NCBI GenBank assembly: GCA_029940035.1
Contig: JAOZRT010000003.1
Location: 1-44,862, forward strand
Reading direction: 5' to 3'
From: Desulfobacterales bacterium
GTDB lineage: Bacteria; Desulfobacterota; Desulfobacteria; Desulfobacterales; B30-G6
Length of the DNA: 44,862 nucleotides
The position numbers and the translations under genes are program-made. The notes beneath the pieces are model-generated. The model saw only the letters and a list, made by a program, of their open reading frames with translations. It did no database searches and was not told the DNA's origin. Shown here in pieces: positions 21,254 to 24,119 of the stretch (position 1 is the stretch's first letter; each line of letters opens with the position of its first letter).

Positions 21254-21400
21254 TCAGAAAAAAATTTAGACAGGATTTTCAGGATTACAATGAAAAACCG
21301 TGCTGTCCGTAATTAGCGTGTAGGTCTTGTACCTTATACCGATTGCCTTATGCCCATTTATATCATGTAAATCCTGTTAATCCTTTCAGATATTTACAAC
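21254..21400 (+). mobile_element. ~147-bp MITE-like palindromic element, copy 2
   Basis: Homologous to the reverse complement of 5221-5369. Arms gacaggattttcaggatt / aatcctgttaatcc. Heptamer runs at 21248 (cagaggtcaga) and 21474-21499 (tctgatt-tctgtct-tctgttt-tctga) lie either side. Confidence 0.75.
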
Positions 21401-21500
21401 CTGAACCCGGACAACCGATACCGGGCTATTCGGCATTATACTGACAACTTTTAATCAGGACTTGACCGAAGGGTCTGATTTCTGTCTTCTGTTTTCTGAA

Positions 21501-21593
21501 CTACAAGGAAGATACCGTCCCCATATCGGATCCGTATTGGAATACCGCTGCATCCCGATCATACGCTGCACACTGATTCGTGAATGCGATCAT
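21501..21593 (-). CDS. 30-aa ORF downstream of the Trp attenuator (microprotein or remnant of a deleted gene)
   Basis: Strong AAGGAGG RBS. MIAFTNQCAAYDRDAAVFQYGSDMGTVSSL, with the stop abutting a heptamer repeat. Confidence 0.45.
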   Translation of the reverse strand: MIAFTNQCAAYDRDAAVFQYGSDMGTVSSL

Positions 21594-21662
21594 GCCTTCC
21601 TCCTTGCGTTGGGTATAGAATCCTACTCCATTATCTGTCCCTAAGAACCAGGCTTTAATTCT

Positions 21663-21701
21663 AAAAAGCAAAAGCCGTGAGGCCCCAGGCCCCACGGCTT
21701 T
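21663..21701 (-). terminator. Second intrinsic terminator of the attenuator region
   Basis: AAAGCCGUGGGGCC-UGG-GGCCUCACGGCUUU followed by UGCUUUUU. Confidence 0.8.
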
Positions 21702-21708
21702 CATGAAT

Positions 21709-21745
21709 AAAAAAACCGCGGGCCGTCAAGAGGCGGCCTGCGGTT
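21709..21745 (-). terminator. Attenuator terminator (3:4 hairpin)
   Basis: AACCGCAGGCCG-CCUCUUGA-CGGCCCGCGGUU plus a U tract, 24 nt after the leader stop. Confidence 0.82.
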
Positions 21746-21769
21746 CCAATATCCTATATCAGGGTCTTT

Positions 21770-21859
21770 TCAGACGGCGGCAGCACCTCCCCCAGTGAAG
21801 ACGCACCACCACCAGTTGCCCGAAAAAAGATCTACAATTTTATATAAGTAATTGCTCAT
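21770..21859 (-). promoter_or_regulatory. trpL: Tryptophan attenuator leader peptide (MSNYLYKIVDLFSGNWWWCVFTGGGAAAV)
   Basis: Three consecutive TGG codons (21806-21814). Mutually exclusive 1:2, 2:3 and 3:4 pairings are visible. Confidence 0.78.
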
Positions 21860-21988
21860 AATGCTCTCGTACCGGTTCTCGAATAGATTATCAAGCGGTC
21901 TATAGACCCATCCACCGATCATATTTACAACTTCCAAGTTGCAACCTTGATTTTTTTTACAGTATAAAACAATAGGCTGGATCTTGCA

Positions 21989-22085
21989 CGGGTCAGAGGC
22001 TTTCATAGGCAAGGCGTCCAGGGGTGATGTCGTAGCTCTTTACTTCGAATCCCTGGCAACACCGCCTATGGAAGCCTCTGGCTCG
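21989..22085 (+). repeat. 97-nt long hairpin (REP/MITE-like element or structured RNA)
   Basis: 22-bp outer stem cgggtcagaggctttcataggc / gcctatggaagcctctggctcg, with all three mismatches G-U compatible on the + strand. Inner stem ccaggggt / atccctgg. Confidence 0.7.
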
Positions 22086-22166
22086 CCTGAAGGGTGATAT
22101 TTGGTGATTAAAGATTGGACGATTATCCTATACGGGGTTGATAAAATCATCAAATATCATGCAAGA

Positions 22167-24119
22167 CTATAGGGCGACCATGGCGACCCTGTAGCACCGC
22201 AAACAGCGCCGAGCCTCCTCCCGGGCCTCCGGCGTCGAATAGCCCTGTTCCACTTCATCGAAGATGAACTTGCGGGTATCCGGGGGAAGCATCTCCAGAT
22301 GTTTGCGCCGGTGCTTTCCTATTTCTCCCAGGTTTTCATCCGGATCATACACCTTGACGTCCTTGAACAGCTTGCGGAAGTGATCGTCGACCGTGTACTC
22401 CAGCGGCAATCCGTTGATCTGCAGGTCAATACTTTGTGCAGCCTTGCGCCCGCCGGCACATGCCGTAATGAGCGCTCCCGGGCCAGTCTCGCAGTCACCG
22501 GCTGAAAACAGCTTCGGCCGGCTGGTCTGTTTGGTCACATCATCCACGATAAGGGTATTCCAGGCGGTTGTTTCCACACCGTCCACACTTTCCAGTAGGG
22601 AGAGGTCCACCCGCTGGCCAATGGCCGGCACAACCGTGTCGCAGTCGAATACGAATTCGGAGCCTTCGATGGGCACGGGACGTCGGCGACCGCTCTTATC
22701 CGGAGCCCCCAGTTTCATGCGGATGCACTCGAGCCCGGTCACCACGCCGTTTTCCTCTATAATCCGCACCGGTGTCGTCAAAAAATGAAACTGCACTTTT
22801 TCTTCTTCGGCATCCACGATTTCAACTTCATCGGCAGGCATTTCAGCCCTCGTCCGCCGATAAACCAGGTTGACGTCCTCCTTGTCGATCCGGAAGGCGC
22901 ACCGGACACAATCGATGGCCACGTTGCCGCCGCCGATCACCACAACGCGTTTGCCTTCCGGATAGGGATCGCGGCCCTCGTTGATATCCCGGAGGTACTG
23001 CACACCCGGGATGAACCCCTTGTACCCCTTGTCCTCGCCATCAACCCGCATGGGCGAACTGTCCTGGGCACCGATGCCGATAAAAACGGCATCGTAGTCT
23101 TCCTCGAGTTGAGACAGTTTCACATCCCTGCCCACCGCGGTATTGTAATGGATGGTGACGCCCATCGCCTGGACCTGCTCTACCTCGTTGCGCAGAATAT
23201 GGCGCGGTAGCCGGTAGTCCGGTATGCCCATGGCGGACATGCCGCCCGGCTCACCCAGACCCTCGAAAATAGTGACAGCATGGCCTTTGCGGGCCAGATG
23301 AAACGCACAGGTTACCCCGGCCGGGCCGGCACCCACAATGGCCACCTTGCCGGTTTTCCCGGACGGCTCGATCTTGTAATCAGGCCCTTTGTGCATGGCC
23401 AATTCACGGTCGGCCACGAAACGTTTGAGATATTTTATGGAAACCGCATCGTCCAGGTTTGCCCGACGGCAGTTCTCCTCGCAGGGACGGACACATACTC
23501 GGCCAACAATACCGGGAATCGGGAGCCGGCAGCGGATCACATCCAGGGACTCCTCGAACTTGCCTTCCTTGATGAACTCGACATAGCGCGGGATATCCAG
23601 ATGTATGGGGCAGGCGTCCGCGCAGGGAGCCGTGACATTGGCCTGGTAATCCCCGGCCTCCACCTGTGTACCGCCGTGGACCGCCGCCTGAAAAGCTTCC
23701 GGGAAATGGGCCAGCGCATGCATGAGTGCCACAGGGCCGGTTTTACCGATGCCGCACTTCGCCGAACTGCTGACGACTTGAGCCACGGCACCCAGGTTTT
23801 CCACGTCGGCGGCTGTCCCGTCGCCGCGGCAGATTTTGTCAAGGGTCGCGGCCATAACATTGGTGCCGCTCTGGCAGGGAATGCACTTGCCGCACGACTG
23901 GTCGCGCACGGCAGCCATATAGGCCCTACAGAGGTCCACAATATTGACATCATCGGACCGGAGGACAATGCCGTCCCACCCGATGAAGGCCTTGATGGTT
24001 GCATCCTGGTTGAACTTCTCAGGCAGAGCGATTTGCGAGTTTGTCCCGGAGCTCTGTTTTGCAGAATTGCGATTGTCGGTTATCTGGTCACCCCAGGAAC
24101 TAAACAGAATCTCATTCAT
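22167..24119 (-). CDS. FAD/NAD(P)-dependent Fe-S oxidoreductase (NuoF-type 4Fe-4S domain plus GltD/SudA-like domain; SfrB/formate dehydrogenase beta-like), 650 aa
   Basis: SCGKCIPC...C cluster, APCADACP, GRVCVRPCE, GAGPAG, GIPDYRLP, GGGNVAID and EARRCLRC motifs. Confidence 0.88.
   Translation of the reverse strand: MNEILFSSWGDQITDNRNSAKQSSGTNSQIALPEKFNQDATIKAFIGWDGIVLRSDDVNIVDLCRAYMAAVRDQSCGKCIPCQSGTNVMAATLDKICRGDGTAADVENLGAVAQVVSSSAKCGIGKTGPVALMHALAHFPEAFQAAVHGGTQVEAGDYQANVTAPCADACPIHLDIPRYVEFIKEGKFEESLDVIRCRLPIPGIVGRVCVRPCEENCRRANLDDAVSIKYLKRFVADRELAMHKGPDYKIEPSGKTGKVAIVGAGPAGVTCAFHLARKGHAVTIFEGLGEPGGMSAMGIPDYRLPRHILRNEVEQVQAMGVTIHYNTAVGRDVKLSQLEEDYDAVFIGIGAQDSSPMRVDGEDKGYKGFIPGVQYLRDINEGRDPYPEGKRVVVIGGGNVAIDCVRCAFRIDKEDVNLVYRRTRAEMPADEVEIVDAEEEKVQFHFLTTPVRIIEENGVVTGLECIRMKLGAPDKSGRRRPVPIEGSEFVFDCDTVVPAIGQRVDLSLLESVDGVETTAWNTLIVDDVTKQTSRPKLFSAGDCETGPGALITACAGGRKAAQSIDLQINGLPLEYTVDDHFRKLFKDVKVYDPDENLGEIGKHRRKHLEMLPPDTRKFIFDEVEQGYSTPEAREEARRCLRCYRVAMVAL

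Follow-up and report, generated by a model that had tools for sequence, protein, structure and literature searches.

An orphan tryptophan attenuator in a Desulfobacterales genome, most likely the scar of a deleted trpD paralog

In Escherichia coli, the trpL leader heads trpEDCBA (Rfam RF00513, Trp_leader) and follows the classical attenuation logic, with RNA segments pairing as 1:2, 2:3 or 3:4. The enterobacterial his attenuator is a longer helix chain, A:B, C:D and E:F against B:C and D:E, in which only the last helix is a terminator. The Sinorhizobium meliloti trpL attenuator, in the sections available of two reports, gives rise to a trans-acting small RNA (sRNA), rnTrpL, and a peptide, peTrpL (PMC6614838, PMC7298713). 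In the literature searched, which left most subscription journals outside, we found no description of tryptophan (Trp) leader-peptide attenuators in Desulfobacterota-type lineages: the accessible part of PMC545781 mentions neither tryptophan, leader peptide nor T-box, that of PMC5343134 discusses trp attenuation for gammaproteobacteria only, and that of PMC4833913 describes no such attenuator of these lineages. Here we analyse a stretch of 44,862 nt from a Desulfobacterales bacterium (assembly GCA_029940035.1, contig JAOZRT010000003.1; the window hereafter) in which an initial annotation, made from the sequence alone, had described a Trp attenuator with no trp gene behind it. The description stands, as only a 30-aa remnant follows the leader; we find that this orphan attenuator is very probably a deletion scar that has lost its TrpD cargo, the scar itself most likely being non-functional.

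The unit is made up of the following elements; G000 denotes the genome of the window, and other G numbers denote relatives.

21889..21894, minus strand: -35-like hexamer TTGATA (alignment A1; TTGACA in four aligned relatives)
21866..21871, minus strand: -10-like hexamer TACGAG (TAnnAn in 5 of 5 aligned sequences)
21770..21859, minus strand: leader peptide open reading frame (ORF), ATG at 21859, 29 codons plus stop; product MSNYLYKIVDLFSGNWWWCVFTGGGAAAV
21764..21828, minus strand: hairpin 1:2, Trp codons against segment 2 (-34.1 kcal/mol, RNAfold)
21709..21745 including the U-run, minus strand: terminator 1, segments 3:4 (-19.6 kcal/mol, one A.C mismatch)
21688..21725, minus strand: alternative helix 4:5 (-22.1 kcal/mol; z = -4.2, 0 of 300 shuffles as good)
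21663..21701, minus strand: terminator 2, segments 5:6 (-25.0 kcal/mol; tail UUUUGCUUUUU)
21599..21605, minus strand: Shine-Dalgarno AAGGAGG of the former trpD paralog (same ribosome-binding site (RBS) and ATGATC start in G002 and G001)
21501..21593, minus strand: remnant ORF of 30 aa, TrpD-paralog codons 1-2 (MI) fused in frame to the last 28

All of the anatomy given in the initial annotation is there, at the coordinates stated. The 29-aa leader carries its three consecutive Trp codons (WWW) at 21814-21806 (minus strand), and its stop codon sits at the 3' end of segment 2. The pairing of segment 1 with segment 2 is recovered by RNAfold as a stable hairpin in which GGUGGUGGUGC pairs with GUGCUGCCGCC, together with an inner 5-bp stem and an outer extension. 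Terminator 1, whose hairpin spans 21745-21714, ends in the U7 that had been noted, at 21715-21709 (minus strand); the annotation was right about this terminator but had overlooked another at 21701-21671, which is the stronger of the two (-25.0 vs -19.6 kcal/mol) and is separated from AAGGAGG by approximately 60 nt. Downstream, the 30-aa ORF with its AAGGAGG, the repeats and the convergent hisD are all where they had been described. The 211-nt piece as a whole has a folding energy of -96.6 kcal/mol; 200 dinucleotide shuffles of it give -65.1 +/- 4.5 (z = -6.95), and none of them folds as well. A chance ORF beside chance hairpins was rejected as an explanation, the element being conserved across relatives; the pattern evidently exceeds chance, since the architecture is kept before a TrpD gene in other genomes. 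The anatomy and this conservation support a ribosome-mediated Trp leader-peptide attenuator, and the trp-attenuation logic originally ascribed to the locus is backed by the same anatomy and by the conserved leaders of relatives.

Like E. coli trpL, the locus has a run of Trp codons in a short ORF, candidate 1:2, 2:3 and 3:4 pairings that would exclude one another and a U-run terminator, and its leader stop is placed so that a ribosome there would block segment 2. Unlike trpL, it lies below the gathering score of RF00513: at the gathering threshold Rfam gave 0 hits in the whole window, and a search at E <= 10 matched RF00513 at 21706-21817 (minus strand) with 16.7 bits and E = 1.3, against a gathering score of 41 bits, the other matches in the window being chance matches only. 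It also differs in its three Trp codons, in its additional terminator with the proposed 4:5 relay and in its probably leaderless leader; relatives carry one divergent trpD paralog as cargo, deleted in the window. With the his attenuator it shares six segments whose neighbours could pair alternately, so that a stall at the first segment would be relayed onward; in the window, however, both 3:4 and 5:6 resemble full U-run terminators, and the signal would be Trp. Like S. meliloti trpL, it is a Trp attenuator whose RNA or peptide could in principle act elsewhere, but whereas that attenuator still heads trpE(G), the orphan in the window appears to have a simple deletion origin.

The evidence for this origin comes from a DNA search of 41 genomes (G000 and 40 relatives), in which the leader was matched in same-genus G002 and G001, G004 (another genus) and G024 (another family). 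In each of these four genomes the leader precedes a TrpD paralog of 357-373 aa, and the homologous leaders retain their Trp runs (NWWWC in G002, NWWC in G001, NWWWC in G004 and YWWWR in G024). In G002 the leader region is matched at 80% (query positions 1-238) at C11:46477-46712, and the region of the remnant is matched at 47944-48056, 1.2 kb onward on the same contig. Between the two G002 matches lies a gene listed as an ORF of 381 aa, or 373 aa from the aligned ATGATC start; its equivalent in G001 is listed at 389 aa, or 366 aa from the aligned ATGATC start. Both genes score above the cut-off of 199 bits for TIGR01245 (NCBIfam; 287.6 bits in G002, 299.4 bits in G001) and also match Pfam PF00591 and PF02885. 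TrpD thus sits between the leader and the remnant stretch in G001 and G002, in agreement with the earlier suggestion that the regulated gene had been deleted; a full trp gene at this place in relatives, which the initial annotation had named beforehand as the mark of a deletion scar, is what these two genomes carry.

The remnant itself consists of the two ends of this gene. Its product is MIAFTNQCAAYDRDAAVFQYGSDMGTVSSL, and the C-terminus of the G002 protein, LIAFTNQCAAYDREASIFQYGSDMETASSF, equals it save for the first residue and a few substitutions; aligned to the paralogs, the window peptide occupies their final 30 columns. The junction falls within a 5-bp TGATC microhomology at 21592-21588. 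The window reads AAGGAGGAAGGC-ATG-ATC/GCA-TTC (the stroke marks the junction), while the G002 gene starts AAGGAGGAAAGT-ATG-ATC-AGG and near its end reads GAT-TTG-ATC/GCA-TTT; the G001 gene starts ATG-ATC-AGA. In G002 the two TGATC copies are 1029 nt apart, that is, 343 codons, in frame. Comparison of the window with G002 therefore places a deletion in the window between two TGATC copies, with RBS, start codon and codon 2 surviving on one side and the last 28 codons with their stop on the other. To judge from this alignment, a clean in-frame microhomology deletion of approximately 1029 bp removed an extra trpD gene. No Pfam match at E <= 1 was found for the remnant 30-aa ORF, for the minus-strand frames of 67 and 80 aa or for the plus-strand frame of 60 aa, and the Trp-starvation-induced microprotein that had been offered as a possible output gains no support from a 30-aa ORF that is TrpD codons 1-2 joined to the last 28.

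The ancestral unit would have comprised a promoter, a WWW leader of 29 codons that was probably leaderless, two tandem terminators, a Shine-Dalgarno sequence and a monocistronic, divergent TrpD paralog, and would have lain between two genes that serve as syntenic anchors.

22167..24119, minus strand: upstream neighbour, a NuoF-4Fe4S/GltD-like NAD(P)-binding oxidoreductase of 650 aa
19894..21195, plus strand: convergent hisD (TIGR00069, 539 bits)

The order GltD-like gene, leader and TrpD recurs in G001 (C145), G002 (C11) and G004, with hisD directly after in G001. In the species of the window, the approximately 1029-bp deletion between TGATC microhomologies would have spared only codons 1-2 and the last 28. 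The opposite polarity, in which the leader and the 30-aa ORF were ancestral and TrpD was inserted later, is unlikely because the 30-aa ORF has homology to the TrpD C-terminus and because the gene is present in other genera and families.

The lost gene was probably dispensable. TrpD proteins fall into a canonical type of 412-425 bits (G000:C22, G002:C307, G003:C113 and G004:C112) and a leader-linked paralog type of 286-324 bits (G001:C145, G002:C11 and G004:C14), and G000 has only the canonical one (412.8 bits). It belongs to a full canonical set, with trpG, D, C, F, B and A on C22 and trpE on C526, in which TrpE (507.7 vs a cut-off of 517.7) and TrpF (188.4 vs 215) score slightly below the curated cut-offs; as G000 keeps this complete set, loss of the paralog causes no Trp auxotrophy. 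Attenuators of the same build serve other genes of this genome: trpE has its own WWW leader, MHKPMNTHNVNWWWQADITGSADGSFCV, and two terminators (C526:1690-1809, locus L046/L059), and the DAHP synthase gene has a YSYYYWFYY leader and two terminators (C440:962-1112, locus L047). The trpE leader sits at the end of a cluster of ORFs that, read by eye, are aromatic-pathway genes. In G003, of the same genus, just 47 nt separate the converging GltD-like gene and hisD (C129:35241-35287, locus L052/L056), and this interval between the matched gene parts contains no leader, paralog or repeats. Since G003 lacks the whole unit and the window shows an internal deletion, the paralog has, by this comparison, been lost twice in the genus, completely in G003 and by internal deletion in the window. 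An attenuator without a gene would then result from a commonplace microhomology deletion that took a second, dispensable copy of trpD out of a genome retaining the full Trp pathway.

To place the orphan among its relatives, we built a covariance model, R1, from five leaders (165 positions, 51 pairs). R1 matches 115 of the 151 genomes of the order at E <= 1e-3; as it contains two generic terminators, weak matches need not be attenuators. Among the R1 loci, 19 of the best 30 contain a WW or WWW frame. The first downstream ORF was scanned at 26 loci, excluding the identical L023, the window and two contig-end loci; its family was TrpD at 4, anthranilate synthase I at 9, ADH synthase at 8, DAHP synthase at 2 and an IS110 transposase at 1, with no assignment at 2, which on reading by eye are one DAHP synthase and one ADH synthase. 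TrpD was found behind the leader in G001, G002, G004, G024, G042 and G098. Judging from these downstream genes, the architecture serves aromatic-pathway genes across the order and a cargo-less copy is the exception, the exceptions being the window and one copy interrupted by an insertion sequence (IS) element. The check proposed in the initial annotation, what follows homologous leaders, gives TrpD or other aromatic-pathway genes across the order. The scar thereby exposes a lineage-wide attenuator family, before trpE, the trpD paralog, ADH synthase and DAHP synthase genes, for which Rfam has no model.

At L032 (G158:C1:3088036-3088164), an FWRWW leader and two terminators are followed 307 nt later by an IS110-family transposase, possibly making this a second disrupted attenuator locus. 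The two-terminator architecture also precedes ADH synthase (TIGR01949), the first enzyme of an alternative route to 3-dehydroquinate, at L025, L028, L030, L031, L033, L034, L042 and L043; no WW frame was found in the searched stretch of these eight loci.

The deletion could be compared with independent sequence data: parts of the stretch occur in 20 sequencing runs (16 studies), none of them listed as an RNA run, and 7 contain at least half of the sampled words. Contigs of four runs, from four studies, bridge 21588-21592, where neither a joint nor a loose end is reported; the assembly itself possibly derives from one of the four.

21474-22400: contig of run X1, 0 differences
21557-22148: contig of run X2, 0 differences
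21498-21806: contig of run X3, 0 differences
21501-22230: contig of run X4, 7 differences over 730 nt

The deletion is not an assembly error, and it is common to a strain approximately 1% divergent; rare variants are lost from contigs, however, and an intact allele in the minority could be among them. That the missing gene reflects an assembly or binning artefact, the organism carrying a full trpD paralog here, might be suspected from the fragmentation of the assembly (581 contigs) and from the multi-copy repeats that flank the locus, but the contigs of the four runs cross the junction unbroken and a whole-genome search gives one TrpD in G000; we consider such an artefact extremely improbable. 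Separately, the variant contig of X4 joins 21183 directly to 21501, without the 317 nt that carry a repeat and separate hisD from the remnant, indicating that this spacer is polymorphic within the species.

The orphan unit might nonetheless have been kept for a function of its own, as a trans-acting leader RNA or peptide, a 30-aa micropeptide or an antisense transcript against hisD. Several observations count against a dead scar in this respect: nothing has decayed, the RBS, the leader and remnant frames and the two terminators being intact, with a C-to-T change in the -35 and an A.C mismatch in terminator 1 as blemishes; and lineage-specific substitutions number 9 in the window, no excess over the 11 of G002 and 14 of G001, which keep the gene. 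This count is equally compatible with a fairly recent deletion and with retained constraint. A retained function would further fit a deletion exactly in frame, with RBS, start and stop kept, an allele found in the contigs of four studies, including the approximately 1% divergent variant, a lack of predicted minus-strand terminators between the remnant and hisD, and the precedent of trans-acting attenuator products in the sections available of PMC6614838 and PMC7298713. On the other side, the remnant peptide is the two ends of TrpD, without a family match. An aromatic-pathway gene stands behind the attenuator at 25 of the 26 other loci and IS110 at the remaining one, which argues that free-standing copies do not recur as a selected state. 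In G003 the leader went together with the gene, leaving 47 nt between the flanking genes, and the convergence with hisD is identical in G001, where the gene is intact. We therefore hold a retained function to be improbable, and the antisense-to-hisD and trans sRNA or peptide outputs raised in the initial annotation found no support. A free-standing Trp sensor, kept from strain to strain and acting through a terminated RNA of approximately 150 nt or the 29-aa peptide in trans, or through starvation-induced antisense to hisD, strikes us as decidedly improbable; were it true, antisense to hisD would link two pathways that consume phosphoribosyl pyrophosphate. A rather different account has the hairpins merely terminate the upstream GltD-like gene, as a tandem pair, and regards the WWW ORF as a chance frame. 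GltD-like transcripts may well end at terminators 1 and 2; after the GltD-like stop (22167), terminator 1 is the first terminator predicted on the minus strand. Yet the leader, the 1:2 pairing and both terminators accompany TrpD in G024, where the upstream gene is different and divergent; the architecture precedes trpE in many genomes; TTGAC(A) lies 35-37 nt before the leader ATG in 7 of 7 trpD-paralog-type loci; and loss of the Trp codons or of the 1:2 pairing in most homologues was not observed. This account has hardly any likelihood in our estimation, and we retain the deletion scar as the preferred reading.

How would the intact attenuator have worked? Were terminator 2 independent of the leader, it would halt all read-through, so its presence calls for an explanation; we propose a relay between the terminators in which 1:2, 3:4 and 5:6 form when transcription terminates and 2:3 and 4:5 form when it reads through. 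With ample charged tRNA-Trp, the ribosome would run to the stop codon; because this codon lies at the 3' end of segment 2, its arrival there would block segment 2 and let terminator 1 form, and with 3:4 and 5:6 both formed transcription would end. With the ribosome stalled at WWW, segment 2 would pair with segment 3, the freed segment 4 and its U-run would pair with segment 5, neither terminator would form and read-through would follow. In this genome read-through could yield only the 30-aa remnant and an untranslated tail toward hisD.

The pairings that this relay would use are unequally supported. For 4:5, the 3' arm and U-run of terminator 1 pair with an A-run and the 5' arm of terminator 2, at an energy comparable to those of terminator 1 (-19.6 kcal/mol) and terminator 2 (-25.0 kcal/mol); shuffles of segment 5 give only -11.1 +/- 2.6 kcal/mol, vs -22.1 in the window. 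In 17 of 22 sequences, those in which both terminators were located, the helix has -13.2 to -25.9 kcal/mol and z of -1.5 to -5.6; this scoring left out G004, G049, G044, G122 and the window, which was scored separately. The second terminator is present in 34 of 34 rows of alignment A4 (33 distinct), and across the 33 distinct sequences 92.9% of the cells of a 12-pair 4:5 helix are paired, vs 50-58% with slid partners. For 2:3, the partner of GGGGGAGGUGCUGC is GCAGGCCGCCUCUU, with -21.3 kcal/mol for the fold before segment 4; 17 relatives give z of -0.6 to -4.6.

Other results argue against the relay, or at least soften the case for it. The alternative pairing of segment 2 with segment 3, proposed from the start, exists as a fold, but in the window it does not stand out from shuffles of the upstream part (z = -0.4; 93 of 300 as good). 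Double changes occur in only 2 of the 12 pairs of 4:5 (4 cells), which is weak covariation; column shuffles already reach 91.2% pairing, and the arms have a common palindromic CCGCGG-like core. Thus, the folding and covariation analysis that the initial annotation had recommended came out strongly for folding (z = -6.95) and weakly for 4:5 covariation, and the support for 4:5 appears to be conserved complementarity, not covariation. The family as a whole is nonetheless built with two serial terminators, whose cross-pairing arms would relay the ribosome signal, and the in-frame scar is in effect a natural minigene that could serve to measure attenuation free of cargo effects.

The region upstream of the leader points to an unusual start. 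The -35-like hexamer begins 35 nt upstream of the leader ATG, and the -10-like hexamer lies 17 nt past it and 6 nt before the ATG. TTGAC(A) is present 35-37 nt upstream of the leader ATG in 12 of 21 WW loci, as well as in the trpD-paralog-type loci mentioned above, and no Shine-Dalgarno sequence was found before the leader ORF in the loci examined. This spacing and the lack of a Shine-Dalgarno sequence suggest, as a hypothesis, that transcription starts at or beside the leader ATG, making the leader leaderless or nearly so, and most leader ORFs of the family would likewise begin at or beside the likely transcription start. Less favourably for such a promoter, the final base of the -10-like hexamer (TAnnAn) is never T, and a consensus sigma-70 promoter scan returned 0 sites.

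The paralogs behind the leader have diverged from canonical TrpD, in which GTGGD and KHGN are motifs with catalytic roles. Both motifs are present in the canonical G000 TrpD and in the solved chain 9ucw_A, whereas the aligned paralogs of G002, G001 and G024 (L002:1959-3080, L003:1757-2857 and L005:170-1243, the paralog coordinates in relatives) have DTGVNGT or ETADKGT in place of GTGGD and RYGN or RQGN in place of KHGN, together with an insertion of 12-14 aa. TIGR01245 scores of the paralogs in G002, G001, G004, G024 and G098 are 287-329 bits (cut-off 199). The paralog may therefore differ from an ordinary anthranilate phosphoribosyltransferase, and a TrpD paralog lacking GTGGD and KHGN under its own Trp sensor suggests a Trp-linked function.

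Two families of dispersed intergenic repeats lie outside the switch on either side.

21256..21475, no strand assigned: dispersed intergenic repeat, up to approximately 37 matches in its own assembly
21970..22110, no strand assigned: second dispersed intergenic repeat, up to approximately 45 matches in its own assembly

Both families are numerous in G001-G004 too. One repeat copy lies between trpB and trpA on C22 (5347-5474), and copies stand on both sides of the leader-trpD unit in G001.

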